From positions 692-64,691 of the forward strand of contig JAFGOT010000035.1 of NCBI GenBank assembly GCA_016926395.1: 64,000 bases of DNA, written 5' to 3'. The notes under the pieces were generated by a model. That model saw only the letters and a program-made list of their open reading frames with translations. It made no database searches and was not told the DNA's origin. This DNA comes from Candidatus Woesearchaeota archaeon (lineage in GTDB: Archaea > Nanobdellota > Nanobdellia > Woesearchaeales > SKGA01). The first letter of the stretch is position 1, and each line of letters opens with the position of its first letter. The translations under genes and the position numbers were made by a program. This document shows positions 1,587 to 32,559 of the stretch, piece by piece.

Positions 1587-1703
1587 TTCTTCTCACTTTT
1601 TTTACTTTTTTATTTTTGTGTGATTAACATCAATATTGATTTGGGTGTTTATAATTGCTTTTTTGATACTCAAAAAATAATTTCATTTAAGAGGTAATAA
1701 ATA

Positions 1704-2483
1704 ATGACTTTTTTTGATACTGCTTTGGATCCAATTCTTAGACCTTTACTTACTTTAGGTCCTCTTTTAACTATTTTGATCATCAGTTTGATTGTTTCTC
1801 TTATTACTACTTTTATCTATAAGTATGCTACGGATCAAACAAAGTTACGAAAACTAAAGGCGGATATGAAACGTTATCAAAAAAAAGCAATGGCTTCAAA
1901 GGATGATCCTGAAAAAGCAATGAAAATGCAAAAAGAAATGATGAAGTTAAATGGAGAATACATGCGTTCTTCAATGAAATCTATGCTTTATACTTTCTTG
2001 CCAATATTATTATTTTTTGGTTGGCTTGGTGCTAATCTTGCTTTTGCTCCTATCGTGCCTGGTGTTCCATTTAATGTCTCTGCAACTTTTGAAAGTGGTG
2101 TTTCTGGTTCTGTTGATTTAGTTTTACCTGTTGGTTTAACAATGAGTGATAATTTAACCAAACCTGTTCAAGAAGTTGTTTCTTGGAATAATATTTCTGG
2201 TCCTGCTGGAACTTATGATTTAAGCGTAATCCACAGTAGTGGTGAAGAGCAATTTTTTTCTGTTTTAATAACGGATAAACAAAAGTATGTTTCTCCTGAG
2301 CATTTATTAGAATCTGATATTTTTAAATCAGTTAATGTTGGTAATAAAAAGCTCTATCTTTTTAGATCGATTCCTGTTTTTAACAAAATACCTCTTATAA
2401 AGAATTTTAATTGGTTTTGGACATACTTCTTGTTCTCAATTATCTTTTCCACCACTTTAAGAAAAGTGCTTAAATTGGCTTAA
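1704..2483 (+). CDS. DUF106/EMC3-Oxa1-like membrane protein (archaeal YidC-like insertase family) with an inserted extracytoplasmic domain
   Basis: N-terminal TM followed by a Lys/Met-rich coiled coil (KLRKLKADMKRYQKKAM..KAMKMQKEMMKL) and TM2, typical of the MJ0480-like family. It occupies the conserved slot after secY. About 130 extra residues lie between TM2 and the last TM. Confidence 0.7.
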   Translation: MTFFDTALDPILRPLLTLGPLLTILIISLIVSLITTFIYKYATDQTKLRKLKADMKRYQKKAMASKDDPEKAMKMQKEMMKLNGEYMRSSMKSMLYTFLPILLFFGWLGANLAFAPIVPGVPFNVSATFESGVSGSVDLVLPVGLTMSDNLTKPVQEVVSWNNISGPAGTYDLSVIHSSGEEQFFSVLITDKQKYVSPEHLLESDIFKSVNVGNKKLYLFRSIPVFNKIPLIKNFNWFWTYFLFSIIFSTTLRKVLKLA

Positions 2484-2584
2484 ATCGCGTGTTTTAACGC
2501 ACTTTTTCTTTTCTAATTTTTCGGGAAGCTTTATAAATGGTCTTTAATTCTTGTACCTTACTTAAATTACAGAAGGTAATAACT

Positions 2585-2854
2585 ATGCCAAGAGGTATGT
2601 TTAAATCAAGAACCCTACGACGTGTTTTTAGACGTCTACCATCCGGTAAGTCTGAATTACGTTACGAACAAAGAAACCCTTCTGTTGCTCATTGTGCGAG
2701 ATGCGGATCTCAGTTGCACGGTATGCCTCGAATTCGAGCTTCCAAATTAGCAAGCGTTCCTAAATCTCAAAAAAGACCTGAGCGACCGTACGGTGGAGTT
2801 CTTTGTAGTCGATGTCAACGTGACATGATCAAAGTAGAGGCGAGAGAAGAATAA
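2585..2854 (+). CDS. rpl34e: 50S ribosomal protein L34e
   Basis: MPRGMFKSRTLRRV...CARCG...CSRC is the typical L34e N-terminus with a zinc-ribbon-like Cys pattern. The internal ATG at 2585 was chosen over the 2537 start in the ORF track. Confidence 0.9.
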   Translation: MPRGMFKSRTLRRVFRRLPSGKSELRYEQRNPSVAHCARCGSQLHGMPRIRASKLASVPKSQKRPERPYGGVLCSRCQRDMIKVEAREE

Positions 2855-2870
2855 TTTTCTTATTCCGTCT

Positions 2871-2895
2871 CTAGGATGAGGGCGACCCATCCTGG
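2871..2895 (+). other. GC-rich hairpin between L34e and L14e (8-bp stem, 9-nt loop)
   Basis: CTAGGATG (2871-2878) pairs with CATCCTGG (2888-2895), with one G-U pair. It stands out as GC-rich in an AT-rich genome. Confidence 0.3.
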
Positions 2896-2925
2896 CGAAA
2901 AAACAAGAGAAGGAGATCACAAAAA

Positions 2926-3237
2926 ATGATTTTTGAAATTGGAACTGTTTGTGTTAAACTTGCAGGAAGAGATGCTGGAAAACGTTGTGTTATTGTAGAT
3001 ACAATTGATGATTCTTTTGTACTTATCGATGGTCAAACACGGCGACGAAAGTGTAATGTTTGTCACTTAGAACCTACTAAACAAAAGTTAAGTATTTCTA
3101 AAGGTGCAGATTCCTCTGCTGTTAAGTCTGCTTTTAAAGAAATTGGTGTTGAAGTACTTGATGTTAAATCAAAAAAAGTTTCTGATAGACCAGTTAAAGC
3201 ACACAGACAACATGATAAACCCGCTAAGAAAAAATAA
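2926..3237 (+). CDS. rpl14e: 50S ribosomal protein L14e (KOW domain)
   Basis: IGTVCVKLAGRDAGKRCVIVD is a KOW motif typical of L14e. The C-terminus is basic, and an SD-like GGAG lies upstream. Confidence 0.9.
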   Translation: MIFEIGTVCVKLAGRDAGKRCVIVDTIDDSFVLIDGQTRRRKCNVCHLEPTKQKLSISKGADSSAVKSAFKEIGVEVLDVKSKKVSDRPVKAHRQHDKPAKKK

Positions 3238-3256
3238 ATCTTAGCTTTTTACTTTT

Positions 3257-3571
3257 TTATTTCTTTTCAAATCTATCTTTATCTCTTCCATAACATTTGT
3301 CCATCACTTTTGAAAAAGCTGTTTCAAGGTCTATTTCTAAAGAATTTGCAAGACAAGACAGTGTGAACAAAATATCTCCAATTTCTAAACCTAGTTCTTG
3401 GGTTTCTTCTGTTGATTTCTTTTTTTTCGGACCGTACATGTGGTTTACTTCACGTGCTAATTCGCCTGTTTCCTCCATTAGCCGAACCATTATTTCATGC
3501 GGTTTCCAGTACCCTATTTTGTGAAGTTGTATCCATTCATCTACTTCTTGTTGCATATTTTTCAGTGTCAT
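3257..3571 (-). CDS. MazG-like nucleotide pyrophosphohydrolase
   Basis: 104 aa all-alpha protein with EETGELAREV and ELGLEIGDILF metal-binding helices (EExxE...ExxD pattern). Confidence 0.8.
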   Translation of the reverse strand: MTLKNMQQEVDEWIQLHKIGYWKPHEIMVRLMEETGELAREVNHMYGPKKKKSTEETQELGLEIGDILFTLSCLANSLEIDLETAFSKVMDKCYGRDKDRFEKK

Positions 3572-3605
3572 ACACTGTTTTTTTCTCAGAACTATTTATT
3601 TTTTT

Positions 3606-4385: not shown

Positions 4386-4574
4386 ATCTAAGCTTGATTT
4401 GGTTCTTTTGCCTTTTTTTCTCTATTTTTTTCATTTTTTGACTTTTTGCGCATCACTGGACATTTACTCATAAGGTATATAAACAAGCCACTCTATTCGT
4501 TCTTGTATGGTAAAACCCCCTCGTCAGAGTCTCTGGCGGGTGAAATAAGAAGGGAAACCAAGGAGGAAATAACC

Positions 4575-4853
4575 ATGGAAAATATACATTTAGATAAAAA
4601 TAAACCCGAAAAAACGTTCAGAGCAAGTCCAATTGCGGCAACCATTTGGGTTAATGAAGCAACCAGCAAGGATGGTGAAAAATCATTCTACAGAACGATT
4701 TCTTTAGAAAGAAGCTTTAAGGATAAAGAAGGTGCTTGGCAAAAAACATCTTCGCTAAGAACTAACGATTTGCCTAAAGCAATTTTGGTCTTAAACAAAT
4801 CATATGAATATATTGCCTTAAAAGAAGAAGGCGAAACAATACTTGAGGAATAG
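4575..4853 (+). CDS. Small conserved-looking protein abutting radA; possibly a PC4/YdbC-like ssDNA-binding fold
   Basis: ATG at 4575 is preceded by GGAGG (4561-4565). Its TAG stop (4851-4853) directly abuts the radA ATG at 4854. The beta-rich segment followed by a helix (WQKTSSLRTNDLPKAILVLNKSYEYI) resembles PC4-like proteins. The functional assignment is tentative. Confidence 0.45.
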   Translation: MENIHLDKNKPEKTFRASPIAATIWVNEATSKDGEKSFYRTISLERSFKDKEGAWQKTSSLRTNDLPKAILVLNKSYEYIALKEEGETILEE

Positions 4854-5795
4854 ATGAAGATGTCAAAAGAGTTAACAATTGAAGATTTACCTGGTGTAGG
4901 TTCCGCTACTGCCGAAAAATTAGCTTCCTCTGGTTTTGATAATCCTATGGCAATTGCTGTAGCAACTCCTGGCGAACTTTCCGACGCGGCTGGCGTTACT
5001 GAAGCCGCTGCTAGAAAAATGATTCAAGCAGCACGTTCCATGATGGACATGGGTTTTCAATCAGGAGAAGATTTACTTAATAAACGAGAAAGGGTTATAA
5101 AAATTAAAACTGGAAGTCAAAGTTTTGATACTATGCTTAACGGTGGTTTTGAAACAGGAGCTATAACAGAATGTTTTGGTCAATATGGTAGTTCTAAAAC
5201 TCAACTGGCGCATATTCTTTGTGTTAGTATTCAAGCTCAAGAAAAGGACGCTGTGGCTGTTTATATTGACACAGAGAACACTTTTAGACCTGAAAGAATT
5301 ATTCAGATTGCCGCGGGCTTTGGTTTAGATCCTAAAGAAGTACTTCAAAATATTAAAGTTGCAAGAGCATTTAATTCTGATCACCAGATGCTTTTAGCAG
5401 AAAAAGTAGATGATTTAGTTAAAGAAGGACATAAAGTTCGTTTGGTTGTTGTAGATTCTTTGACTGCACATTTTAGAGCAGAGTTTGTTGGAAGAGGAAC
5501 TTTGGCTGAACGTCAGCAAAAGCTAAACAAACATATGCATGTTCTTGCTAAATTTGCTGATTTGAATAACGCCTGTGTTTATGTTACCAATCAAGTGATG
5601 TCAAAGCCCGATGCTTTTTTTGGAGATCCGACAGAAGCTATTGGAGGAAACATTGTAGCTCACAATAGTACTTTTCGAATTTATTTAAGAAAAGGGAAAA
5701 AAGGAACGAGGGTTGGAAAATTAGTTGACAGTCCAAATCTTCCTGATGCAGAATGCGTCTATGAAGTTGTGACAGAAGGAATTAAAGACGTTTAA
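4854..5795 (+). CDS. radA: DNA repair and recombination protein RadA
   Basis: N-terminal HhH (LPGVGSATAEKLASSGF), a RecA core with Walker A (GQYGSSKTQ) and Walker B (LVVVDS), and L2-like GGNIVAH. Confidence 0.95.
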   Translation: MKMSKELTIEDLPGVGSATAEKLASSGFDNPMAIAVATPGELSDAAGVTEAAARKMIQAARSMMDMGFQSGEDLLNKRERVIKIKTGSQSFDTMLNGGFETGAITECFGQYGSSKTQLAHILCVSIQAQEKDAVAVYIDTENTFRPERIIQIAAGFGLDPKEVLQNIKVARAFNSDHQMLLAEKVDDLVKEGHKVRLVVVDSLTAHFRAEFVGRGTLAERQQKLNKHMHVLAKFADLNNACVYVTNQVMSKPDAFFGDPTEAIGGNIVAHNSTFRIYLRKGKKGTRVGKLVDSPNLPDAECVYEVVTEGIKDV

Positions 5796-5856
5796 TTCTT
5801 TTTTATTTCTCTTTTTTTCTATATCTTTTTAAAGTCTAGTTAACTTTATTCTTCTT

Positions 5857-6906
5857 ATGATACCTTTAAAACTTGATTTTAATCATAATATCGTTTCGTT
5901 AAAAGTTTCTTTACCAGACGATTTATGGTACTTGTCTCATATCATTGCAGTAAATGACAGTATGACTATGAAGACGGAGCGAAAAATCAAATTAGGAGGG
6001 TCAGATACAAACGCTAAAGTTGTAAAAAAAATTATTGTTTTGACAATAACAGTTGAAGATATTTCTTTTTCAGATGATTCTTCTCAACTTCGTGTCAAAG
6101 GCAAAGTAACTCAAGGCCCTGAAGACGTTCCTCATGGCTCATATCATACTTTTGGAATTTCCGTTAATGATACTTTCACTCTTGTGAAACCTTCTTGGCC
6201 AAATTTTACTATGTCTCGACTTGACGAAGCAATAAAAAATAGGGATGATGTTATTTTATTTGTTTTATATGATCGTGAACAAGTTCTTTTTTCTTCTCTT
6301 AGACAAACAGGCATCCAACATCTTGGAGAGCAAAAAGGTGATGTTCAAAAAAAACAATTTGATTCTTCTTCTTCAACCGTTTTTTATGATGATATTCTTA
6401 AACAGACTCAACTTTATGATGAACAACTAAAACCAAAAAGTGTTGTTTTTGCTACTGCAAATTTTTTTAAGTCTTATGTTGAAAAAAAACTTCCTGATTC
6501 ACTAAAGAAAAAATCTTTTTTTATTGAATCGACTGTTGTTTCTAAATCTGTTGTTAGTAAACTTCTTTCAAGACCTGAACTTCAAAATATTCTCGCAAGT
6601 CAAAGACTTCAATCGGAGGTGTTGTTTGTCGATGAAGTGTTAAAAGAACTTAACAAAGACATGGTTGCTTATGGTTTTGATGATGTTGTTGAATCAGCTA
6701 CTACGGGTGCTATTTCTTATTTAGGGTTAACTGAAACATTTCTAAAAAAATCACGAGAAGAAAATTTTTATGATGCTTTAGATATGTTATTACAACAAGT
6801 TGATTCATCTAATGCTAAAATAATTTTTATTTATGGTGATGATGCTAAAAAAACTATTGATGGTCTTGGCGGTATTGTAGGTGTTCTTAGATGGAAAGCA
6901 AATTAG
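5857..6906 (+). CDS. Pelota (Dom34) homologue, mRNA surveillance/ribosome rescue factor
   Basis: 349 aa. The N-terminus (LKVSLPDDLWYLSHII) is typical of Pelota and the C-terminal half is eRF1-like. Confidence 0.85.
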   Translation: MIPLKLDFNHNIVSLKVSLPDDLWYLSHIIAVNDSMTMKTERKIKLGGSDTNAKVVKKIIVLTITVEDISFSDDSSQLRVKGKVTQGPEDVPHGSYHTFGISVNDTFTLVKPSWPNFTMSRLDEAIKNRDDVILFVLYDREQVLFSSLRQTGIQHLGEQKGDVQKKQFDSSSSTVFYDDILKQTQLYDEQLKPKSVVFATANFFKSYVEKKLPDSLKKKSFFIESTVVSKSVVSKLLSRPELQNILASQRLQSEVLFVDEVLKELNKDMVAYGFDDVVESATTGAISYLGLTETFLKKSREENFYDALDMLLQQVDSSNAKIIFIYGDDAKKTIDGLGGIVGVLRWKAN

Positions 6907-7760
6907 TTTTTGAATCAGAAATTATATCTTTAATTCAAGATAAACAAGAGTTAAAGTCTCTTGACAAAAGCTACATCAAAAAAATTCTTCTTTCAAATCT
7001 TTCAGATTCTATGATTAAAAAATTAAATTCATATTCTTCTTTTAAGCAATGTAAAAGGGGTAAAGTTTGTGGTGAATTAATTTCTCTAACAAGAAAAATT
7101 TTACGTGATCGTTATGGTGTTTTTATTAGAACTCCACTTTCTAATTACAAAAAGAAATTATTGTCTTTGTCTTCTTTTGATGATGATTACGTTGACTCTA
7201 TTCTGTCTTTTCATCAATCAACTTTTGAACGTTTGCCTTATTATTCTTCTTTCTATCCCTTGTTATTTAAAGAGCTTTTTTCTTTGGGTTTATCTGAGAA
7301 ATTTTCTTTAGGAGATTTTGCTTGCGGTTACAATCCTTTAGCGTATAAATATCTTCCTGTTAAGCCAACAAATTATTTCGCTTGTGATATTTCGTCTGAT
7401 GAAATGTCTCTGATTAATTCTTTTTTTGTAAATCAAAAAATTTCTGCTGAAGCTAGAAGCTTTGACTTGTTAAGTGATGATTTTTCTAATTTTATTTCCA
7501 ATCAAAAATTTGATGTTGTATTTTTATTGAAGGCTCTTGATTCTTTGGAGATTGTAAAAAAGCATTCTTCAAAAAAGTTATTGGATGCTATTAACACACA
7601 TTTTTTTGTTGTCTCTTTTCCTTTGGTTTCTATTGGTGGAAAAAATTCTATTGATTCAACTAAGCGTTCTTGGTTTGAAAAATTCTGTGAAAAACAATCG
7701 TGGTCTTATTCTACTTTAAGTGTTCCAAATGAGTTATTTTATGTAGTTAAGAAGGAGTAG
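6891..7760 (+). CDS. 16S rRNA (guanine1405-N7)-methyltransferase-like protein (Arm/Rmt, FmrO family)
   Basis: Blocks collinear with RmtB/ArmA: SFHQSTFERL, GDFACGYNPLAY, ACDISSDEM, DVVFLLKALDSLE, VVSFPLVSIGGKN...SWFE and ELFYVVKK. The gene overlaps the pelota 3' end by 16 nt. Confidence 0.8.
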   Translation: MESKLVFESEIISLIQDKQELKSLDKSYIKKILLSNLSDSMIKKLNSYSSFKQCKRGKVCGELISLTRKILRDRYGVFIRTPLSNYKKKLLSLSSFDDDYVDSILSFHQSTFERLPYYSSFYPLLFKELFSLGLSEKFSLGDFACGYNPLAYKYLPVKPTNYFACDISSDEMSLINSFFVNQKISAEARSFDLLSDDFSNFISNQKFDVVFLLKALDSLEIVKKHSSKKLLDAINTHFFVVSFPLVSIGGKNSIDSTKRSWFEKFCEKQSWSYSTLSVPNELFYVVKKE

Positions 7761-9424: not shown

Positions 9425-10033
9425 ATGTCTGAACAACAAGAAGAAAATTTTATCATTCCTAATGAAGATTACTTAAAAAGTGGTATTCACATTGGAACTA
9501 AATTTAGAACTAAATACATGGAAAATTTTGTTTACAAAACAAGACCTGACGGTTTATCTGTTTTAAACATTCAACAAATTGATGAACGTTTAGATGCAGC
9601 TGCTAATCTTTTAGCAAATTATGAACCTGAAGATATTATTGTTGTTTCTCGAAGAGAGAATGGTTGGAAACCTGTTAGAATGTTCGCAAAAGTTACTGGC
9701 TGTAAATTTTTTGCTGGACGTTACCCTCCTGGTATTTTGACTAACCCTCAATTAAAGAACTTTATTGAAGGAAAAGTTTTACTTGTTACTGATGCAGGTC
9801 CTGACAAAAACGCTGTTAAAGATGCATTAAATGTTGGACTTCCAATTATTGGTCTTTGTGACACTAACAATGTGGCTAACAACTTAGATTTAGTAATTCC
9901 TTGTAATAACAAAGGTAAAAAAAGTCTTGGTTTAATATTCTGGGTTTTGGCAAAACTTTACATGGAGAAAAAAGGTTTAACTAATAAAGGTCAAGCTTTT
10001 GAGTACACTATTGATAATTTTACTGAAGAATAA
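9425..10033 (+). CDS. rps2: 30S ribosomal protein uS2
   Basis: LKSGIHIGTKFRTKYMENFVYKTRPDGLSVLNI and GLCDTN motifs. The internal ATG at 9425 was chosen. Confidence 0.95.
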   Translation: MSEQQEENFIIPNEDYLKSGIHIGTKFRTKYMENFVYKTRPDGLSVLNIQQIDERLDAAANLLANYEPEDIIVVSRRENGWKPVRMFAKVTGCKFFAGRYPPGILTNPQLKNFIEGKVLLVTDAGPDKNAVKDALNVGLPIIGLCDTNNVANNLDLVIPCNNKGKKSLGLIFWVLAKLYMEKKGLTNKGQAFEYTIDNFTEE

Positions 10034-12305: not shown

Positions 12306-14786
12306 TTACTCTTCTTGTTCTTCTTCACTTATTACAACTGCACAACTTTTTACTTTATCTCCTTCTACAAGTCTCATAACTCTTAATCCTTGAGTATTAC
12401 GTCCTATTGTGCTAATTTGTGATGATGGAATTCTAACAATTATTCCTTTTTCAGAAATCATAAGAATGTCTTCGTTTCCTTGTATTCTTCTTACACTTGC
12501 TACTTTTCCATTTCTTTCGCTACAGATTATGTTTCTTACTCCTTTTCCTCCTCTGTTAATCAGTCTATATTCACTAATTGGAGTTCTTTTTCCATATCCG
12601 TTCTCGGTAACTGTTAAAATTGTTTCTTCTTCTTTTGCAAGTATCATTCCTACAACGTTGTCATTTTTCGCAAGAGTTATGCCTCTAACTCCTCTGCTCG
12701 TTCTTCCTATTGGTCTTGCATCTTGTTCATTAAATTTAACTGCTTGTCCATTTTCAGATGCAATAAGAATTTGATCTTTTCCGCTTGTCTTTAGTACTTT
12801 TATGACTTTGTCTCCGTCATCAAGTGTTATTCCTATTATTCCATTTGTTCTTGGTCTAGAGTATGCTTCAAGACTTGTTTTTTTGACGATTCCTTTTTTT
12901 GTAACCATCATTAAATATTCGTCTTCTCTAAATTCTTCTACAGGGATGACTGCTGCAACTTTTTCACCTTGTTGCAGGTTTACTAGGTTGATTAGTGGTT
13001 TACCTTTTGCTTGTCTTGTTCCTTCAGGTATTTTATACACCTTTAGCCAATGTGCTTGTCCTCTGTCTGTAAATATTAATAGGTATGAATGAGTGTTTGC
13101 AATGAATAGATGTTCGATTATATCTTCTTCTTTCATGCTTGCTCCAATGACTCCTTTTCCTCCTCTATTTTGTAATTTGTATGTGTCTATTGGAAGTCTT
13201 TTAGCATATCCTGTTTGAGTGATGTTTACGACTTGGTTTTCTCTTACGATTAAATCTTCAAAATCAATATCATCATCTTCTCCTTCAATTATTTGCGTTT
13301 TTCTTTCATCGCCATATAATTCTTTTACTTCAATTAATTCTTGTCTTATTATTTCTTTAACCTTGTCTGTGCTTTCAAGGATTGATTTTAATTCTGCAAT
13401 GTTTTCAACTAGTCCTTTGTGTTCTTCTCTGATTTTATCTTGTTCAAGACCTGTTAGTTTTTGTAACTTCATATCAAGAATTGCTTGTGCTTGTTCTTCT
13501 GAGAAGTCATACTTTTCAATTAACTCATCTTTTGCAATTTGTGCCGAATCTGCTGCTTTAATTAATGTAATTATTGGATCAATGTGGTCTAATGCTTTAG
13601 TTAGTCCTTCTAATAAGTGCGCTTTTTTCTCTGCTTTCGCCAAGTCATATTTTGTTCTTCTTGTGACAACTTCTTTTCGATGTTTTATGAATTCACTAAG
13701 CATGTCTTTTAGACCTAGAATTTTTGGTTCTCCGTTAACTATGCTCAAGAAAATAATTCCTGTTCCTATTTGTAGTCTTGAGTGTTTTAATAATTGATTT
13801 TTTACGACTTCTATGTTTGCGTCTCTTTTTAATTCGATGACAATTCGCATTCCAGTTCTATCACTTTCATCTCTTAAGTCGCTGATTCCTTCTATTCTTT
13901 TATCTCTAACAGCGTCAGCTATTTGTTCTATAAGTGATGCTTTATTCACTTGATACGGGATTTCAGTAACGATAATTGCAGTTCTGTTTCTGATTTCTTC
14001 TTCATGCATTACTGCTTTTACTTTTATTTTTCCACGTCCTGTTAAGTATGCTTGTTTTATTCCTGATGTTCCTTGTATTATTGCGCCTGTTGGAAAATCA
14101 GGACCTTTTACTATTTCTATTAAATCGTTAATTTCAGTTTCTTCTCCATTTTCAAGAAGATGAATTGTTCCATCGACAACTTCTTTTAAGTTATGTGGTG
14201 GGATGTTTGTTGCCATTCCAACTGCAATTCCACTAGATCCATTCACTAATAAATTAGGAATTCTTGTTGGAAGAACAACTGGTTCTTCTAAACTTTCATC
14301 AAAGTTAGGTCTCATATCAACTGTTTCTTTGTCAATATCTGCTAAGATGCTATTTGATATTTTTTCAAGTTTAGCTTCTGTATAACGCATTGCTGCGGGA
14401 CTATCTCCATCTACACTTCCAAAGTTTCCTTGACCTTTAATTAGGGGATATCTTAACGAAAACTCCTGAGCCATACGAACTAAACTATCATAAACTGCAG
14501 TATCTCCGTGAGGGTGATATTTACCTAATACTTCCCCAACAATTCTCGCACTTTTTTTGAACGATTTGTTATGTGTTAGACCCATTTCGTTCATGGCATG
14601 CATTATTCTTCGATGGACTGGTTTTAACCCATCTCTTACGTCTGGTAATGCTCGTCCGATGATTACGGACATAGAATAATCCAAATAAGCAGTCTTCATT
14701 TCGTCTTCAATTACTGCTATTTTTATGTTTTCTTTAGGTACATTTTGACCCATATTTTGTTCCTGAGAATTGTTATTGTCTGCCAT
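12306..14786 (-). CDS. gyrA: DNA gyrase subunit A
   Basis: [16 protein letters not shown] (catalytic Tyr), GKYHPHGD, and a C-terminal beta-pinwheel containing a QNRGGKG GyrA-box-like segment. Confidence 0.97.
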
Positions 14787-14949: not shown

Positions 14950-15087
14950 TTATTCAACGATTCGTTCACGGTTTATTGTAAAGCTAAAGCCGCAATAAAC
15001 GCATTTTTTAACCTTTCCAATCGCACTTCCTTTTAGCTGCTGATATTTCATGCTTTGTCTGCATTTTGGGCATCTAAGAATTAACAT
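14950..15087 (-). CDS. Small zinc-ribbon protein
   Basis: 45 aa with CPKC...CVYC. The start was chosen at MLILRCPKC, directly downstream of scpB. Confidence 0.45.
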   Translation of the reverse strand: MLILRCPKCRQSMKYQQLKGSAIGKVKKCVYCGFSFTINRERIVE

Positions 15088-15091
15088 TTTT

Positions 15092-16012
15092 TTAAAGAAG
15101 ATCTTCCTCTTCTTCCTCTTCTTGTCCTGAGACAAATTTTTCAAGTTCTTCTAAAGGGTTTTCATTGTCTTCCTTTAGTTTTCTTTCTTTTTCTTTTTCT
15201 TCATCCATTGCTTTTTTTACATCATCAAGACTGGTTGTTGTGGCATCAATTGTTTTTTGTTCTTTTTCAAGTTCTGGATGAGTGTTTCTTTGAGGAAGTT
15301 CATGGCCGTCCACTCTTTTTGATACTTCTGATAAATTTAGTTCCATACGTTTTAGAAAATCTTGTTCTTCAGCTAATTCTTCAGGTGTTCTTTTTGCCGT
15401 TTTTGGTTCAATATCTATTATTTCTAGATCCCCAATAGTCTGGGTGTTTTCTTCTTCGCTATCTTTTTCTAAATCAACTATTTTTAAATTTCCTAATTTT
15501 TCTTGGTGTGCATTTCTAAGTTGTTTGAAAACATCTTTAATATCTTCATCTCCTTCAACATCAAAGTAATTATAGAATTTATCTGTTATTTTTAGAATAT
15601 AACTTCGTCCTTCTTCTTCTTTTGTAATTAATTTTTGTTTTACTAGAACTTTTATGTGATCGTAAGCGCCTTGGCCTCTCATGTGGATTATGTCTGATTG
15701 TAAAACTGGACTTTTATATGCCACAACTGCTAATGTTTTCAAAATTGGTTTTGGAAGTTCTGTTTCACTTACTATTTTTTGGATGTCATTTGTATATTTT
15801 CCAATGACTGATAATTTCCATTTAGATTCTACTTCCGTGATTGCTAAACTAGTGTCTCTTTTTTCGTAGTCTTCTTGTAATTCTTGGAGCGCTTTTTTTA
15901 CTTCTTTTGGTTTTGAGCTAGTGAACTCTACTAAATCTGTTTCACTCACTCCTTTTCCTGAAGCAAAAAGTATTGCTTCAAGTCTATTTTTTAATTCACT
16001 CATTTTAAACAA
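15092..16012 (-). CDS. scpB: Segregation and condensation protein B (ScpB) with a long acidic C-terminal extension
   Basis: LEAILFASGKGVS...LKTLAVVAYKSPVLQSDIIHMRG...KVLVKQKLI are the tandem winged helices typical of ScpB. Confidence 0.85.
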   Translation of the reverse strand: MFKMSELKNRLEAILFASGKGVSETDLVEFTSSKPKEVKKALQELQEDYEKRDTSLAITEVESKWKLSVIGKYTNDIQKIVSETELPKPILKTLAVVAYKSPVLQSDIIHMRGQGAYDHIKVLVKQKLITKEEEGRSYILKITDKFYNYFDVEGDEDIKDVFKQLRNAHQEKLGNLKIVDLEKDSEEENTQTIGDLEIIDIEPKTAKRTPEELAEEQDFLKRMELNLSEVSKRVDGHELPQRNTHPELEKEQKTIDATTTSLDDVKKAMDEEKEKERKLKEDNENPLEELEKFVSGQEEEEEEDLL

Positions 16013-19472: not shown

Positions 19473-19608
19473 GCGGGGATGCCGGAGCGGCCAAACGGGA
19501 TGGACTCAAGCGTCAAAAGCATTGAGTGAAGAGCCGGATTTTCCGGCTATGACTGAGCAATCCATTGGCTTAGTGCCTACAAGGGTTCGAATCCCTTTCC
19601 CCGCACCA
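19473..19608 (+). tRNA. tRNA-Leu (anticodon CAA) with a 49-nt intron; CCA is encoded
   Basis: Folded by hand. Acceptor GCGGGGA/TCCCCGC, 3-bp D stem, anticodon stem ATGGA/TCCAT, loop CTCAAG..A, long variable arm (GGC-TTAGT-GCC), T arm AAGGG-TTCGAAT-CCCTT, discriminator A and CCA. A TATA-like TTTTTAAAT lies about 40 nt upstream. Confidence 0.9.
19511..19559 (+). other. tRNA intron at the canonical 37/38 position with a bulge-helix-bulge motif
   Basis: The central 4-bp helix is CTCA (19505-19508) paired with TGAG (19554-19557). It is flanked by 3-nt bulges AG|C and CA|A carrying the splice sites. The outer helix is GTC (19512-19514) paired with GAC (19551-19553). Confidence 0.8.
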
Positions 19609-25502: not shown

Positions 25503-27080
25503 TTATTCGACAGCATATGTTTTTATTATTTTTATTTTATTTCTGAAATTAACATCTTTGCTTACTTGGATTGGTTTTGCTTGTCCTGCTTTAGCTAACA
25601 TTTCAGTGTTTAGTTTAGTGTATGTGTTTTCTTCTGCAATGCTAAGAATTGGACTTTTCATTCTTCCAAATTCATTTCTTGTTTCTTTGTATGTTAGAAT
25701 TCTTTGTTGTAAATAATTATCAAATCTTAAAATTATTTTTTTAGCTTCTTCTTTTTTTAATTCTCCGCTCGTTAATTCTATTATTAATTCATATCGTGGT
25801 TTTTCTTGGAGTGATTGGATAAATGGCGTGACTGTAAATCCTGATATTGAAATGTTTTTTAGAGCTTCTTGTGCACATTTTATTATTTCTGTTTGCGGTG
25901 CGTGCTCTTCTGCTATATTTAACCATTTGTTTCTTCCAGCAAACCGAACTATTGGTAGTTTATTTTTAAAATCAATAATTTCTACAATATCTTCAATATC
26001 ATATCTATATAATCCTTCTTGTGTTGTCATTATTATTTTGTATTTTTTTCCTTTTTCTACTTCGTCGATTAACTTAATTTCTCCAAATGCATCATCATTT
26101 TTGTATTCTTGAAACTCAAAGAAGTTTTCGTTTGCTACTATTACTCCTGCATCTTCATAGTCGGTAACTCCTAAACTTATTCTTCCCTCGCTTGAAAATA
26201 TTCCTGGGTCTCTAACCGGAATGTCTTTTCCTATTTTCCTTAACAATTCGTCTATATACATTCCGTGAGTTTCTGTCTTTATGCAACTTATTAGCATTAA
26301 ATCAGGCCACAAATTGATTGGTTTCCAATCCACGTGTTTTAGCTTTTCCACTAATTTATTTTTTCCTCTTTTTGTTAATTCTTCTAAAAGTTCTTCTTTG
26401 TGTTTTTGCAAATAATCAATAAAAATTATTGCTTGAATAGGCGAGGCAGTTCCTATTTGTGTTATTTTACTATCGAGAGCTAAGAGTGAGACTTCAAACA
26501 TTTTTTTCTCGAAGTCTAATTCATCCATCAGTTCGTCAGGTATTACTAATCCTTTTTTTACTATCTTAGGTGTATTCCTTGTAACGTATCCAGAAATGTT
26601 TCCATGTTCAATTCCTCCTTCTGTAAATCCATTGGAGCTATTAGCTGCAAAGTAAAGTGTTTTGCCTGTTGCTAATTTTGGAAATCTTTTAAGCATACTT
26701 ACACTCCATATTGCAAACTCTTCTCTAAATTGATCAATTCTTGTTTTTGTTATGGGAATATATTTTGCTTCATTAGTTGTTCCACTCGTAGTCGCAAAAA
26801 ATTTAACTTTCCTTTTCGTTAGAACGTTTTGTTTGCCTTTTTTTATCTCTTCAATGTATGGTAAGTAATCTTCATATTTGCTTATAGGGATGTTTTTTTG
26901 GAAATCTTTTGTTGTTCTGATTTTTTTAAATTCGTGCTCTTTTCCAAATGTTGTTTTTCTATTTTTTATTAGAATTTTTGCTAGTAAGAACTTTTGAACG
27001 TGTTTTGGATTAACCTGCGAGGCTAAATATCTCTCAACGTAACGTGATTTTCCAAGTAAACGAGGGATGTGCATACACAT
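25503..27080 (-). CDS. GH3-family acyl-acid amido synthetase-like protein (adenylate-forming)
   Basis: FATTSGTTNEAKYIPIT (the SSGTT-type AMP-binding motif of GH3 proteins), YRYDIEDIVE, about 525 aa. Confidence 0.8.
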   Translation of the reverse strand: MCMHIPRLLGKSRYVERYLASQVNPKHVQKFLLAKILIKNRKTTFGKEHEFKKIRTTKDFQKNIPISKYEDYLPYIEEIKKGKQNVLTKRKVKFFATTSGTTNEAKYIPITKTRIDQFREEFAIWSVSMLKRFPKLATGKTLYFAANSSNGFTEGGIEHGNISGYVTRNTPKIVKKGLVIPDELMDELDFEKKMFEVSLLALDSKITQIGTASPIQAIIFIDYLQKHKEELLEELTKRGKNKLVEKLKHVDWKPINLWPDLMLISCIKTETHGMYIDELLRKIGKDIPVRDPGIFSSEGRISLGVTDYEDAGVIVANENFFEFQEYKNDDAFGEIKLIDEVEKGKKYKIIMTTQEGLYRYDIEDIVEIIDFKNKLPIVRFAGRNKWLNIAEEHAPQTEIIKCAQEALKNISISGFTVTPFIQSLQEKPRYELIIELTSGELKKEEAKKIILRFDNYLQQRILTYKETRNEFGRMKSPILSIAEENTYTKLNTEMLAKAGQAKPIQVSKDVNFRNKIKIIKTYAVE

Positions 27081-27163
27081 TTGTCTAAAAACTCCATTTA
27101 TATATGTTTGTTTAGTTTTTTCCCAAACGTTTTTATAGCTGTTATATATAAAATATTTTGAAG

Positions 27164-28948
27164 ATGGACCTTCCAGATAATTATGGCTTTGACATTCCAG
27201 ATTATAAGAAATGGCTTTCCTTGCTTTATTTATCTCCTCTAGCTAATGACTTGCTAAAACTGCGTTATTTAAAACGTGACTCTGAAGGTAACATTTGTGA
27301 AGATGTTGTGGGGATGTTTTATAGAGTTGCGAAAAATGTTGCTTCTGCAGACAATCGTTATGGTGGCAATGTGGTTGGTTCAACTGAAAAATTTCTTAAA
27401 CATATGATTGAATTGGATTTAATTCCTGCTTCTCCTATTTTAATGAATGCAGGAAACACTTTGCAATTCTTATTTTCAGATCATGCTCTTGGTGTTCCTG
27501 ATAGTGTTGAAGAGATTTTTGACGTATTAAAAATAAGTGCTACAATTCAGCAACATGGCGGCGGTGTTGGTTTTAACTTCTCTTCTATCAGGCCAAAACA
27601 TGATTCTGTTTCCGGAATGAAAAATGTTGCTTTTGGACCTCTTAGTGTTATGAAAATATTTGATACTTCTTTTAGTGCTATAATCCAAGGTGGACGAAGA
27701 AGTGGTGCTAATATGGCAATTCTTTCAATAGATCATCCTGATGTTCTTTCATTCATTGAGGCTAAGAAAAATGTTAATGTTCTGACAAATTTTAATCTTT
27801 CAGTTGCAGTAACTGATGAATTTATGAAAGCCGTAAAAGATGATTCTTTGTTTAATTTGATTAATCCTAGAAATAATGAAGTTATGCGTTCATTACCTGC
27901 TCGTTATATTTTTGATGCTCTAGTTCAACAAGCATGGAGCACAGGAGATCCAGGGATTGTTTTTATTGATGAAATGAATAGAAAACATCCTTTCAAAAAT
28001 TGTTCTGTTCTTGGCACTGGCTCTTGCGGTCAGTATCAATTAGAATCTTTTGAGGGTGTTCCGTATATGCATATTAATTTGTCAAAAATAGTTACTATCA
28101 AAAATTCTTCCTATAAAGTCGATGAACAAAAGTTACGAGACTTGGTAAGAACCGCGGTTCATTTTTTGGACAATTGTATTGATGTTCATAGATATCCTAA
28201 CTCTCGATTAGAAGAAGCTACCAAACGAGTTAGAAAAATCGGTCTTGGGGTCTTGGGTTTTGCAGATTTACTTTTTAAAATGCGAATTTCTTATGGGTCT
28301 GATGATTGCTTACATTTAATAGATTCTGTGATGAGTATAATTCAAGATGAGTCTCAAAAAGCATCCCATAATTTGGCTTTGCAAAGAGCTCCTTTTCCTG
28401 CTTACAAAGAATCCACTCACAAAAAGCCTTTACGTAATGCTACTATGACTTCTATTGCTCCAACCGGTTCTACAAGTTTAATCGCAGGAACATCTCAGTC
28501 CATTGAACCTGTTTACGCGTTCTCATTCACAACCACCACTAGTGAAGGCGAAGAACTTACAGTTCTTAATAGTGCTTTTCAAGAAGCGGTGGATACGCTG
28601 ACTGTCGATAGGACATCTAAGATACAACTAAAATTTGTTGATTCAATTCAAAACATTCCTTGGTTGGATGATGATTTTAAACATGTATTCAAAACCGCAA
28701 TGGATATTGACCCTAAAGACCATGTTGCTGTTATGAGTCGATTTCAAAAATATGTTGATAATTCCATTTCTAAAACGATAAATATTCCTCACGAGGCAAC
28801 TCAACAAGATATTTCTGAAATATTTTTCTTAGCTTATGAATCATCTTGTAAAGGTATTACTATTTATCGAGATAGGTGTAGAGATAGCCAAGCTTTGCTT
28901 ACAAAGCCTCAAACTAGGCTTTCAGCTTTCGACGAATCAAAAGTCTAA
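27164..28948 (+). CDS. Class II (NrdJ-like) ribonucleotide reductase paralogue with a degenerate active site
   Basis: The RNR barrel is recognisable (GGGVGFNFSSIRP, QGGRRSGANM, DPGIVFIDEMN, SKTINIP, GITIYRD). The finger loop reads GTGSCGQ instead of TNPCGEQ, CNLG is replaced by PYMH, and there is no C-terminal Cys tail. Confidence 0.85.
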   Translation: MDLPDNYGFDIPDYKKWLSLLYLSPLANDLLKLRYLKRDSEGNICEDVVGMFYRVAKNVASADNRYGGNVVGSTEKFLKHMIELDLIPASPILMNAGNTLQFLFSDHALGVPDSVEEIFDVLKISATIQQHGGGVGFNFSSIRPKHDSVSGMKNVAFGPLSVMKIFDTSFSAIIQGGRRSGANMAILSIDHPDVLSFIEAKKNVNVLTNFNLSVAVTDEFMKAVKDDSLFNLINPRNNEVMRSLPARYIFDALVQQAWSTGDPGIVFIDEMNRKHPFKNCSVLGTGSCGQYQLESFEGVPYMHINLSKIVTIKNSSYKVDEQKLRDLVRTAVHFLDNCIDVHRYPNSRLEEATKRVRKIGLGVLGFADLLFKMRISYGSDDCLHLIDSVMSIIQDESQKASHNLALQRAPFPAYKESTHKKPLRNATMTSIAPTGSTSLIAGTSQSIEPVYAFSFTTTTSEGEELTVLNSAFQEAVDTLTVDRTSKIQLKFVDSIQNIPWLDDDFKHVFKTAMDIDPKDHVAVMSRFQKYVDNSISKTINIPHEATQQDISEIFFLAYESSCKGITIYRDRCRDSQALLTKPQTRLSAFDESKV

Positions 28949-29032
28949 AACTTTAATATATATTTTCTATAAGTTATGTTCTAATATTCCTTTTGAAGTT
29001 GAATTAATTATATAAATGAAACTGTTTCCAAA

Positions 29033-29048
29033 CTACTACATGTAGTGT
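29033..29048. promoter_or_regulatory. NrdR-box-like palindrome, distal/weaker copy
   Basis: CTACTACATGTAGTGT. Its centre is 31 bp from the proximal box. Confidence 0.5.
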
Positions 29049-29063
29049 TCATAAAATTTAAAA

Positions 29064-29079
29064 ACACTACATATAGTGT
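29064..29079. promoter_or_regulatory. NrdR-box-like palindrome, proximal/strong copy
   Basis: ACACTACATATAGTGT has 7 of 8 palindromic pairs and is one mismatch from the bacterial NrdR-box consensus. It is identical to the box at 32353-32368. Confidence 0.6.
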
Positions 29080-29192
29080 TTTATCACATTGCTTTGATTT
29101 TGTGATATTCGCAATTTATTGGTGTGATTTTCAATAAATATTTTATATTTGGCTGAAAAGATGTCAAATTTTGTTTTTGTAAGTGTTGGGGC

Positions 29193-31472
29193 GTGAAACC
29201 TATGAGTTTAAATTTATTGCAGAAAAATACAACGGACGTTCCTTTAGTTGAAGACTTACTTGCTAAAGGTCTAAAGTTAACAGACAAAGCTAGAGATATT
29301 CTAAATAATTCGACATCTCTTAAAGAGATGGGTTTGATTATTTTTATGGATCGTTATGCTATAAAGGCTAAACGTGATGATTTTGAAATTGGTGATTTAG
29401 TTGTTGCAATTTCAAAAGATCATCCTAAATATCCTAAAAAAGATTTGGGTATTATTGTGTCTGAGGATGAACATAATTTTCAGATTCAAATGGTTACTGG
29501 TGTTTACAAAGACGATGTTCCTATGTCTATTTCAAAGCTTCAGTGTGACAAGCCATTAGAAAGTATTTATGATGCTTACACTCGAGTTGGAAAAGCCGTC
29601 GCTAGTAAAGAAAGCGAACCAAGCAAATGGCAAGCTAAATTTACTGAAGAACTTTTAAAAGGTCATATTCAACCCGCGGGCCGTATTATGGCGGGTGCAA
29701 ATGTTGATGAAACAGGCAAATATACTTCTAATCTAACTCTTTACAATTGTTATGTTATTCCTTCTCCTGGTGATTCTAGAGCTTCTATTGTGAAAGATAC
29801 TCTTTATCAGATGGTTGAAATTTTTAGTAGAGGTGGCGGTGTCGGTATCAACCTAAGCACTCTTCGTCCACGGTATGCTTACATTAGAGGTGTGAATGGA
29901 AAATCAAGTGGTTCTGTTTCTTGGGGAAATTTATACTCCAATGCGACTGGTCTAATTGAACAAGGAGGTTCAAGGCGTGGGGCTTTAATGTTGATGCTTG
30001 CTGATTGGCACCCTGATATTGAAGAGTTTATTGCTTCTAAACATAAAATAGGTTTTCTTGACAATGCAAACATTTCTGTTTTGATTTCGGATCCATTTAT
30101 GAAAGCAGTAAAAGAAGATGCTATTTGGCCTTTAGAATTCCCTGATTTAGATGATACTGAAACCAAAAGACTTTATGATACAGAATGGGATGGTGATTTG
30201 TTTAATTGGAAGAAGAAAGGTTACAAAACTCATGTTTACAAAAATGTTAAAGCAAGAGATATGTGGCAAAAACTTATTCAATCTGCTTGGAAAAGTGCCG
30301 AACCAGGTATTGTATTTATTGATCACTATAATAACATGAGCAATTCTTGGTATTATAACCCTCTTATTTGTACAAACCCTTGTGGTGAACAAGGACTTCC
30401 AGCTTGGGGCGTTTGTAATTTAGGTCATTTGGCTCTAAATAATTTCGTTGTAAAAACAGGCGAAGATGAAATCGGTCCTTTGTATGATTTTGATTGGGAT
30501 GCACTAAAAGATGCGACTTCTACTTTGGTTCGTTTCTTAGATGATGTTATTGATTTAACTCCTTATATTTTTGAAGAAAATAAGCAGAATCAATTATCTG
30601 AGCGACGTGTTGGTTGTGGTACTTTAGGTTTGGCTGAAGTTCTTATTCGTTTAAGATTAAAAATTGGCGATAAAGAAGCAACTGATTTTGTTGATAAATT
30701 ATACAGAACTATTGCTGTTAACGCTTATATGGCTTCAGTTGATTTAGCAAAGGAAAAAGGTGCCTTTGACAAATTCGAAGTCGACAAGTTTTTAGAAAGT
30801 GGTTTTATGAAAGGAATGCCTGAAGACGTGAGAACTGCAGTTAAAGAGTTTGGAATTAGAAATGTAACTCTCACAACCCAAGCACCTACTGGAACAGTTG
30901 GTTCTATGGTTGGAACTTCAACAGGTATTGAACCATTCTATGCTTTCAAATACTTTCAACAATCTCGTTTAGGATTTCATGAAGTAGAAATTGATTTAGT
31001 TAAAGAGTATGCTAAAAAAGAAGATGGCTCTCTTCAAGATTTCTTTGTAAGTGCTATGGATATGGGTCCTGAGGATCATATAGATCTTCAAGCCACTATT
31101 CAAAGATGGACAGATTCTTCTATTTCAAAAACAGCGAATGTTCCAAGTGATTTTACTGTCGATCAAACAATGAAATTATATGAATATGCTTTCGATACTG
31201 GTTGTAAAGGCGTAACCATTTATCGTGATGGTAGTCGTGATGAACAAATACTTTCAACAGATAAATCTGCTGAAGAAAAAAATGCAGAGCATAAACCAAC
31301 TCTTGCACAGGCAGATGTTCCTAAAGAAGACTTAGAATCTGTTGAAATCGTTTATGGTTCTGAAGTTGGAGAAACCTGTCCTATTTGTAAAAAAGGAATC
31401 ATGGTCAAAGTCGGTGGTTGTACTGAATGTAATGCTGGCTGTGGCTTTAAGGGCGGTTGTGATATGAAGTAA
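29193..31472 (+). CDS. nrdJ: Class II adenosylcobalamin-dependent ribonucleotide reductase NrdJ with a C-terminal Cys-rich redox tail
   Basis: GGGVGINLSTLRP, QGGSRRGALM, EPGIVFID, the TNPCGEQ finger loop, CNLGH, SKTANVP, GVTIYRDGSR, and the tail CPICKKG...CTECNAGCGFKGGC. An alternative ATG start lies at 29202. Confidence 0.95.
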   Translation: MKPMSLNLLQKNTTDVPLVEDLLAKGLKLTDKARDILNNSTSLKEMGLIIFMDRYAIKAKRDDFEIGDLVVAISKDHPKYPKKDLGIIVSEDEHNFQIQMVTGVYKDDVPMSISKLQCDKPLESIYDAYTRVGKAVASKESEPSKWQAKFTEELLKGHIQPAGRIMAGANVDETGKYTSNLTLYNCYVIPSPGDSRASIVKDTLYQMVEIFSRGGGVGINLSTLRPRYAYIRGVNGKSSGSVSWGNLYSNATGLIEQGGSRRGALMLMLADWHPDIEEFIASKHKIGFLDNANISVLISDPFMKAVKEDAIWPLEFPDLDDTETKRLYDTEWDGDLFNWKKKGYKTHVYKNVKARDMWQKLIQSAWKSAEPGIVFIDHYNNMSNSWYYNPLICTNPCGEQGLPAWGVCNLGHLALNNFVVKTGEDEIGPLYDFDWDALKDATSTLVRFLDDVIDLTPYIFEENKQNQLSERRVGCGTLGLAEVLIRLRLKIGDKEATDFVDKLYRTIAVNAYMASVDLAKEKGAFDKFEVDKFLESGFMKGMPEDVRTAVKEFGIRNVTLTTQAPTGTVGSMVGTSTGIEPFYAFKYFQQSRLGFHEVEIDLVKEYAKKEDGSLQDFFVSAMDMGPEDHIDLQATIQRWTDSSISKTANVPSDFTVDQTMKLYEYAFDTGCKGVTIYRDGSRDEQILSTDKSAEEKNAEHKPTLAQADVPKEDLESVEIVYGSEVGETCPICKKGIMVKVGGCTECNAGCGFKGGCDMK

Positions 31473-31545
31473 TGTGTTGAGTTTTACTCAATGTGCCTCG
31501 TATGTCTATGACTTTTCTTTTTTTTCTATTTTCTGTGTGGTCTTT

Positions 31546-31758
31546 ATGGAAAAAAATAAACCCCTTGATTTGAAAAAAATATTACTTTCAGAAGCAAAAG
31601 CAGATCTTTCTGGTATTACTCTATTAAATGGTGACTCTGTTTCACTAGAATACTTATCTACTCATCCTTTGAATTTTATCTTGCCTTCAGATAATTATTG
31701 TCCTGAAGTAGATTCTATACTTAGTAATTTAAGAAATAATTATAAAAAAGAAAATTAA
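31546..31758 (+). CDS. Hypothetical small protein
   Basis: 70-aa ORF after nrdJ with no motif. Its end overlaps the convergent adenosyltransferase gene. Confidence 0.3.
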   Translation: MEKNKPLDLKKILLSEAKADLSGITLLNGDSVSLEYLSTHPLNFILPSDNYCPEVDSILSNLRNNYKKEN

Positions 31759-32321
31759 AAACTAATAATTCTTTGAGACTCTTTAACTGTTTCTTCAGTT
31801 TGTTTTCTTTCAATGCCTCTAACGTAGTATTCTTCTTTTTGAGCCATTAACCAAAGATAGTCTGAAAGTCTATTTACGAAAACTTGTAAGTGTTCATTTT
31901 CATTTCTTAGTTGAACTAATCTTCTTTCAAGTCTTCTTGCAATAGTTCTTGCTTGTTCTAACTGAGCGCTACTCAATGTTTCTCCTGGAATAAACCAGTT
32001 GTTAATATCGTTGTATTTTTCAAGATTCACTATTGTTGATTCTATTTCGTCAACGTGTTCTTTAGAAATTATTTTTTTTAATTTGTGATAATCATCTGAG
32101 TGTGTCGCTACTTCTGCTCCCATAATAAATAGAATGTGCTGTAAGCTTAATAGTTCTTGTTTCATATTAGGTGCTGCGACACTTGCTCTTGCCACTCCAA
32201 TTGCAGCATTTAATTCATCTACTGTTCCGCAAAGATCAAGCATTGGGTCCGCTTTGCTCACCATTCGCCCAAAAAGAATGCTTGTTTTTCCTTTATCGCC
32301 AATTTTAGTCGTTATTGCCAT
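31755..32321 (-). CDS. ATP:cob(I)alamin adenosyltransferase, PduO type
   Basis: TKIGDKGKTSILFG...DELNAAIGVARA and the helical bundle are typical of PduO/MMAB-type adenosyltransferases. Confidence 0.9.
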   Translation of the reverse strand: MAITTKIGDKGKTSILFGRMVSKADPMLDLCGTVDELNAAIGVARASVAAPNMKQELLSLQHILFIMGAEVATHSDDYHKLKKIISKEHVDEIESTIVNLEKYNDINNWFIPGETLSSAQLEQARTIARRLERRLVQLRNENEHLQVFVNRLSDYLWLMAQKEEYYVRGIERKQTEETVKESQRIISF

Positions 32322-32352: not shown

Positions 32353-32368
32353 ACACTACATATAGTGT
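32353..32368. promoter_or_regulatory. NrdR-box-like palindrome, proximal/strong copy
   Basis: ACACTACATATAGTGT is identical to 29064-29079. It lies 32 nt upstream of the minus-strand adenosyltransferase start. Confidence 0.6.
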
Positions 32369-32384
32369 CTGTCATCTTTATGAC

Positions 32385-32400
32385 ACGCTACATCTAGTAC
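32385..32400. promoter_or_regulatory. NrdR-box-like palindrome, distal/weaker copy
   Basis: ACGCTACATCTAGTAC. Its centre is 32 bp from the proximal box. Confidence 0.45.
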
Positions 32401-32559
32401 TTTGTGTTTTTAGTCGTTAGGGTTTATATATACTTATGTTCCATCATTTATACTTTGTAAAATATACTTTTTGTTATTATTTTTTCCTGCCTTTCTCTTG
32501 GCGGAATTTTAAGGTTAAAGCGACAATTTATAAACGACTTTTCACTTTTATCTAGTATC

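Follow-up and report, generated by a model that had tools for sequence, protein, structure and literature searches.

Probable NrdR operators at the promoters of a class II ribonucleotide reductase gene and a cobalamin adenosyltransferase gene in a DPANN archaeon

Introduction

The bacterial NrdR system, described for nrdRJ and nrdAB of Streptomyces coelicolor and for nrdAB, nrdHIEF and nrdDG of Escherichia coli, acts at ribonucleotide reductase promoters, and the class II gene nrdJ is one of its targets in S. coelicolor (PMC9110341, PMC13584703). An NrdR site consists of two partially palindromic 16-bp boxes placed 15-16 bp apart or a further helical turn away, with six positions per box that are highly conserved (C4, A6, A8, T9, T11 and G13), and the boxes are conserved while the linker is not (PMC13584703). 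NrdR has been reported in “some archaea” (PMC9110341, PMC13584703) and in “22% of archaeal genomes” (PMC13584703), but the contrary statement, that NrdR is without archaeal orthologues, has also been published (bioRxiv 10.1101/2025.03.28.645925). The box survey of PMC13584703 covered bacterial genomes only. In haloarchaea, nrdR-nrdAB operons have been ascribed to horizontal transfer from a bacterial source; these operons encode class I reductases, carry nrdR in the same operon, are high in G+C and in some cases lie on plasmids (PMC3019208). When we combined NrdR with the names of DPANN lineages in a literature search, NrdR was unmentioned in the best-ranked matches.

Here, we analyzed a 64-kb stretch of DNA from a DPANN archaeon, hereafter the window. 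Like the bacterial sites, it has paired boxes with the six positions and an unconserved linker of 15-16 bp upstream of a ribonucleotide reductase gene, probably on its promoter, and the putative target is a class II nrdJ, as in S. coelicolor. The differences are that the boxes belong to a DPANN archaeon, whose promoter appears to be of the TBP/TFB type, that a TATA-like element upstream of box 1 would replace the overlap with -35/-10 elements, that no nrdR adjoins nrdJ, and that a second putative operator lies at a PduO-type adenosyltransferase gene. As in the haloarchaeal operons (PMC3019208), this would be a bacterial-type NrdR regulon in an archaeon, probably acquired by inter-domain transfer, but the target is class II and the lineage is a DPANN lineage of low G+C. 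Archaeal NrdR itself is already published, so the window would be an expected extension of the bacterial regulon to a new host group.

Results

Putative target genes and their surroundings

The window carries two class II reductase genes in tandem and, on the opposite strand, a cobalamin adenosyltransferase gene:
27158-28948, plus strand: second class II reductase gene, 596 aa, directly upstream of nrdJ; TIGR02504 551 bits, no ATP-cone
29202-31472, plus strand: nrdJ, 756 aa, an adenosylcobalamin-dependent (class II) ribonucleotide reductase; its Pfam matches are Ribonuc_red_lgC and lgN alone
31755-32321, minus strand: PduO-type cob(I)alamin adenosyltransferase; Pfam Cob_adeno_trans E = 5.7e-45, TIGR00636 PduO_Nterm 143 bits against a cut-off of 108

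The nrdJ product scored 520 bits with TIGR02504 NrdJ_Z (cut-off 400), and no ATP-cone was found in it by Pfam. Exactly this product was also called on the Logan contig L001 (8.7 kb), which confirmed the ATG at 29202. The upstream paralogue was 30% identical to the window nrdJ and 43% identical to the nrdJ product of the archaeal contig L039, and the tandem arrangement was kept in all relatives of the clade. The PduO-type adenosyltransferase makes adenosylcobalamin, the cofactor of NrdJ, so the two putative targets are functionally linked as an enzyme and its cofactor-activating enzyme. An ORF of 70-94 aa with no family match filled the slot that follows nrdJ and precedes the end of the adenosyltransferase gene (31474-31758, plus strand); in relatives, the same slot was occupied by a dUTPase (L021), a HAD hydrolase (L024 and L028) or a nucleotidyltransferase (L027).

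Apart from the boxes, the window was archaeal, as the original prediction had stated: it encodes ribosomal protein L14e, SecY, STT3/AglB and RNase J, and its nearest relatives are named Woesearchaeota or Nanoarchaeota. We also observed a GH3-family (acyl-acid amido synthetase-like) protein at 25503-27080 (minus strand), divergent from the reductase genes and present in L026 too, and a DNA gyrase A subunit at 12306-14786 (minus strand). The GH3 family and DNA gyrase A are more typical of bacteria or plants. A 133-nt tRNA at 19473-19605 (plus strand) was found by Rfam (42.7 bits) and left uncalled by ARAGORN, and it probably contains an intron.

Two box pairs in the window

The first pair sits inside the 253-bp gap between the two reductase genes:
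29033-29048, no strand: box 1 of the putative NrdR site at nrdJ, CTACTACATGTAGTGT; six conserved positions complete
29049-29063, no strand: linker of the nrdJ site, 15 bp, TCATAAAATTTAAAA; canonical length, sequence unconserved among orthologues
29064-29079, no strand: box 2 of the putative NrdR site at nrdJ, ACACTACATATAGTGT; one mismatch against the published consensus

Direct reading of the sequence bore out the stronger palindrome that had been predicted at 29064-29079, with 7 of 8 symmetric pairs and C7 as the sole mismatch to acaCwAtATaTwGtgt. The weaker copy at 29033-29048 was also as described: it had 6 of 8 symmetric pairs around a perfect 12-bp palindromic core (ACTACATGTAGT), the box starts were 31 bp apart, and an independent repeat finder returned both copies at a spacing of 31. 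The pair does lie upstream of the nrdJ start; the original prediction gave a distance of about 115-160 nt, and we measured 123-169 nt from the ATG at 29202.

A search of the window with the consensus, allowing up to three mismatches, gave 6 strand-hits where 0.5 were expected, and none of 100 shuffles attained 6; it also exposed a further copy at 32353-32368. This copy belongs to a second pair, absent from the original prediction, in front of the adenosyltransferase gene:
32353-32368, no strand: proximal putative NrdR box of the adenosyltransferase site, plus-strand sequence ACACTACATATAGTGT; identical to nrdJ box 2
32369-32384, no strand: linker of the adenosyltransferase site, 16 bp, canonical; sequence unconserved among orthologues
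32385-32400, no strand: distal putative NrdR box of the adenosyltransferase site, plus-strand sequence ACGCTACATCTAGTAC; six conserved positions complete

The proximal box is 31 nt upstream of the adenosyltransferase ATG (32321, minus strand). The linkers are thus 15 bp at nrdJ and 16 bp at the adenosyltransferase gene, the palindromic symmetry of the four boxes amounts to 6/8, 7/8, 7/8 and 5/8 pairs, and C4, A6, A8, T9, T11 and G13 are complete in all four of them.

Specificity of the motif

With the loose regular expression from the literature, C.[AT].[AT][AT].[AT].G, the window yielded 403 single matches and about 30 spaced pairs. This expression is therefore non-specific at 32% G+C, and we used the strict six-position form and a weight matrix instead. 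A strict pair was defined as two boxes with all six conserved positions, 30-33 bp apart. Exactly two strict pairs were found in the 64 kb, against a mean of 0.017 in first-order Markov shuffles, and none of the 300 shuffles reached two. The weight matrix was built from the 20 boxes of the relatives, and with it the four window boxes were the four best 16-mers of about 128,000 on either strand. The copy at 32353-32368 and nrdJ box 2 were joint best with 24.4 bits each, followed by nrdJ box 1 with 17.3 bits and the distal box with 15.5 bits, while the next 16-mer in the window had 13.8 bits and the 99.9th percentile was 3.6 bits. Occurrence at chance frequency had been named as the result that would empty the motif of meaning; the count of strict pairs and the ranking of the four boxes at the top of the matrix scan both speak against it.

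Putative promoter anatomy

A TATA-like element precedes each pair:
29008-29016, plus strand: TATA-like element of nrdJ, TTATATAAA; putative archaeal TATA box, ends 16 nt upstream of box 1
32423-32432, minus strand: TATA-like element of the adenosyltransferase gene, TATATATAAA (read on the minus strand); putative TATA box, ends 22 nt upstream of the distal box

The block at nrdJ was conserved between the window and its relative L012. In all 12 clade promoters, which are orthologous and so not independent samples, T[AT]TAAA ended 14-25 nt before box 1; the background was 0.0017 per position per strand as calculated from whole loci, and AT-rich intergenic DNA would give more. The archaeal TATA box is usually centred near -26. 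With this spacing, and if the TATA-like element is the TATA box, transcription probably starts in or just before box 1, so that the boxes would lie within the first ~45 nt transcribed. Shine-Dalgarno runs of the GGTG type were read before most start codons, and they fit leadered mRNAs.

The nrdJ boxes are 123 nt from the start codon in the window and 15-50 nt in the relatives. The longer distance is explained by an insertion of about 85 nt in the window leader (29080-29201) relative to L012, whose nrdJ product is 86% identical. The insertion holds a TATA-like run (29143-29152) and a 19-nt stretch (29130-29148) that matches 28952-28970 with 84% identity. It may represent a promoter segment that was duplicated and provides a second, NrdR-independent start downstream of the operator.

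Conservation of the boxes in relatives

The nearest nrdJ proteins form a tier of 65-86% identity, with 699-838 aa (mostly 750-800) and without an ATP-cone; where named, they come from Candidatus Woesearchaeota, Nanobdellota, Nanoarchaeota or Nanoarchaeia. Proteins of the next tier, at about 60% identity, have an N-terminal ATP-cone and come from DPANN archaea and Patescibacteria. Seven relatives' loci with an nrdJ product 67-86% identical to that of the window were compared:
L012, 86%
L021, 79%
L022, 74%
L024, 73%
L028, 73%
L026, 70%
L027, 67%

The box-bearing relatives include GCA_046540075.1, GCA_046546105.1, GCA_051819805.1 and JGI Ga0222667_1000002. The six long loci share one gene order, namely reductase paralogue, nrdJ, variable gene, adenosyltransferase (opposite strand) and NFACT_N. 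The remaining locus, L012, is only 3.3 kb long and contains the end of the paralogue, the intergenic region and nrdJ, and it is too short for the adenosyltransferase promoter.

The box pair was present at the nrdJ promoter in six of the seven relatives (L012, L021, L022, L024, L026 and L028), and four of six carried one at the adenosyltransferase gene (L021, L022, L024 and L028). L026 had none at the adenosyltransferase promoter, and L027 had boxes at neither promoter. The sequence of nrdJ box 2, ACACTACATATAGTGT, recurred in L012. All pairs of the relatives had a 16-bp linker, as did 11 of the 12 clade sites when the window was included. Conservation upstream of nrdJ in related genomes, which the original prediction had proposed as a check, was thus observed at six of seven promoters, and the linkers were divergent. 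Because no box pair precedes the upstream reductase paralogue in the window or in any relative's locus examined, one of the two paralogues would escape NrdR control.

The logo of the 24 boxes at the 12 orthologous promoters was ACACTAnATrTAGTGT, which agrees with the bacterial consensus at 16 of 16 positions, the weakly conserved flanks included. Position C4 was kept in 24 of 24 boxes, and the other five key positions were kept in 21-22 of 24. The mean information per position was 1.32 bits in box 1 and 1.59 bits in box 2, against 0.43 bits in the linker and 0.45-0.46 bits in the flanks.

The boxless locus L027 (JGI Ga0645780_00016) is part of a 1.02-Mb contig; the locus has 25% G+C, an nrdJ without ATP-cone and the same gene order. 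We predict that it is a natural negative control and lacks nrdR. Since L027 is without sites and L026 is without one at the adenosyltransferase promoter, the regulon appears dispensable and could have been lost in the window's genome too.

Search for NrdR

The original prediction had noted that nrdR is absent from the window, and tblastn with E. coli NrdR, a scan for zinc ribbons and a search of all six-frame ORFs with the NrdR profile (filters off) all gave the same negative answer for the 64 kb. Two candidates were discarded. The ORF at 2926-3237, to which tblastn gave a weak match (E = 0.73), encodes ribosomal protein L14e. The other, a zinc-ribbon ORF (14953-15150, minus strand, CPKC-17-CVYCGFSFT), has a loose likeness to the zinc ribbon of NrdR, no ATP-cone and a non-significant profile match (E = 1.3). 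Likewise, nrdR was not found within 10 kb on either side of nrdJ in the seven clade relatives. E. coli NrdR had at least 120 matches in the protein database; those listed were 84-100% identical, and the named ones among them were enterobacterial. The NrdR alignment against viral contigs returned four loci, none of them relevant.

Canonical NrdR was found on other archaeal or DPANN contigs. With the equivalog cut-off of TIGR00244 at 124.65 bits, L035 scored 210, L018 204, L038 181 and L039 171 bits, and the NrdR proteins of L035, L038 and L039 matched both PF22811 (Zn_ribbon_NrdR) and PF03477 (ATP-cone). The nrdR product of L035 is NCBI HII14734.1, “transcriptional repressor NrdR [Nanoarchaeota archaeon]”, which we reached by an exhaustive search seeded with four short fragments resembling the relic in L002 (see below) and then through cluster names. 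L035 is a 91.6-kb groundwater contig that also encodes eIF-1A, TBP, MCM, eIF-2beta and NMD3, and its nrdR-nrdD-nrdG operon is preceded by the box pair ACGCAAGGTATAGTAT-16-GCACAATATCTGGTGG. L039 carries the archaeal markers TFIIE-alpha, Hjc and archaeal histone, and at 4436-7669 it has nrdR, an ATP-cone nrdJ and a CobA-type adenosyltransferase gene after the strict pair TTGCCACATCTTGTAA-16-ACACAATATGTTGTGT. On L038 (35% G+C), nrdR adjoins an NFACT_N-RsmF block, the same block as flanks the adenosyltransferase operator of the window, and a CobA/CobO/BtuR-type adenosyltransferase gene lies near nrdR (882-3573).

These three contigs share with the window the DPANN or archaeal context, box pairs with a 16-bp linker and a TATA-like element upstream of box 1, and L039 also shares the association of NrdR control with a cobalamin adenosyltransferase. 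They differ in that nrdR heads the operon and the reductases have their own ATP-cone, whereas in the window's genome nrdR would lie elsewhere and nrdJ is without ATP-cone. The adenosyltransferase of L039 is of the CobA type, in contrast to the PduO-type enzyme with its own operator in the window. Judging from gene order and boxes, L039 would independently tie NrdR control to cofactor adenosylation in archaea, and with L038 it suggests that NrdR also governs cobalamin adenosylation where the adenosyltransferase belongs to a non-homologous family.

Other contigs showed further arrangements. In L018, whose nrdJ product is 61% identical to that of the window, nrdR, dcd, the box pair and nrdJ follow in this order, and in L014 nrdR stands directly before nrdJ. 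On L034 (Logan SRR29366189, 2 kb), a frameshift divides nrdR into 101 + 46 aa before an ATP-cone nrdD; upstream are the strict pair ACACAATATATAGTAT-16-CCACAATATGTTGTGT and the TATA-like sequence CTTTATATA 8 nt before box 1, a layout as in L035. In L002 (DPANN MAG NIOZ-UU113, JACNFY010000037.1), an in-frame 41-aa relic of the NrdR C-terminus was found at 9554-9676 (plus strand; profile E 1e-12), immediately upstream of an ATP-cone nrdJ 60% identical to that of the window, with no zinc-ribbon part and no boxes. It looks as though an ancestral nrdR-nrdJ operon has decayed within a DPANN lineage.

Discussion

We consider it highly probable (roughly 85%) that the four palindromes are two functional NrdR operators, which would repress nrdJ together with the activation of its cofactor. 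Under the proposed mechanism, a canonical NrdR with an N-terminal zinc ribbon and an ATP-cone would be encoded elsewhere in this DPANN genome. By analogy with the bacterial mechanism, NrdR loaded with dATP and ATP would bind both boxes as a tetramer, each operator having two 16-bp boxes three helical turns apart. With the TATA-like element 16-22 nt upstream of the first box, the start of transcription would be in or beside box 1, with box 2 at about +30 to +45. Archaeal repressors usually block polymerase recruitment or promoter escape, and MDR1, LrpA and Phr are examples that occupy sites downstream of the TATA box and keep RNA polymerase from being recruited. The operator position predicted here, over the start and the early transcribed region, is like theirs, but NrdR belongs to a different protein family. 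Bound NrdR would accordingly be expected to block RNA polymerase recruitment or promoter escape at a TBP/TFB promoter, and a high dATP level would then shut down the ATP-cone-less NrdJ and the PduO-type adenosyltransferase together.

The original prediction had set an NrdR regulon beside convergence of an unrelated factor on the same operator architecture, and NrdR operators are now strongly favoured by the consensus, the linkers of 15 and 16 bp, the orthologous promoters, the second pair and the presence of archaeal NrdR with boxes. A box-bearing Woesearchaeota-type clade without canonical nrdR, in which a non-orthologous archaeal factor reads the palindromes after true convergence or after taking over the NrdR operators, seems quite improbable to us. 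It would fit the absence of nrdR from the window and from 10 kb on either side of nrdJ in the seven relatives, and the window does contain the small stand-alone zinc-ribbon ORF at 14953-15150, although its match to the NrdR profile (E = 1.3) was non-significant. But the clade logo equals the bacterial consensus at all 16 positions with the same 15-16-bp linker (PMC13584703), and canonical NrdR with the same kind of boxes is found on DPANN contigs, which makes such convergence implausible. It is also unlikely, though less so, that the operators are relics, with sites inherited, nrdR lost in this genome and boxes left unbound. Loss of nrdR does happen in DPANN, as the 41-aa remnant in L002 documents, the sites have been lost in L027 and L026, and the 64-kb window is without nrdR. 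Against this, the window boxes are the highest-scoring in the clade, two of them being perfect copies (24.4 bits), and full pairs are retained at both promoters. Decay would be expected within the time span in which the linkers diverged; L002 itself, where nrdR decayed, has no boxes left.

The boxes are self-complementary and can also pair with each other (26-nt arms, 81% complementary), and both would be transcribed if the start lies in box 1, so an action as nucleic-acid structure, either as hairpins in the 5' leader or as a terminator of the upstream reductase paralogue, was considered. Covariation is absent at the variable positions 7 and 10, which formed a Watson-Crick pair within only 5 of 24 boxes and, between boxes, in 3-4 of 12 cases; this argues that the conservation is base-specific, as for protein contacts, and not pairing-specific. 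Moreover, no T-run follows the boxes, no Rfam family matched, and the motif also occurs at the divergent adenosyltransferase promoter, where there is no upstream gene to terminate. We therefore rejected the hairpin and terminator reading, to which we give very little probability. Chance AT-rich palindromes in a genome of 32% G+C could account for the many hits of the loose expression, but they almost certainly do not account for the excess of strict pairs over the shuffles, for the position at functionally linked promoters, for the conservation in relatives or for the ranking by a matrix made from relatives only, and we regard chance as refuted.

Taking the window sites as NrdR operators, the comparison of loci suggests that NrdR forms a conserved regulon in DPANN archaea of the Woesearchaeota/Nanoarchaeota type, beyond the mere presence of an nrdR gene. 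The regulon would gain a member in the adenosyltransferase that supplies the cofactor of the reductase and has its own operator in the window. The locus is also a natural test case of a bacterial repressor, which bends DNA over two boxes, acting on a TBP/TFB promoter. Current understanding is not overturned; the adenosyltransferase target and the archaeal promoter context are modest additions. Because nrdJ has 35% G+C against 32% for the window and the gene order is clade-wide, the data indicate that the acquisition was old and not recent. A trade-off is hinted at by the distribution of the ATP-cone, since nrdJ in the clade is without ATP-cone and has boxes, whereas L002 has an ATP-cone nrdJ and has lost nrdR and boxes.
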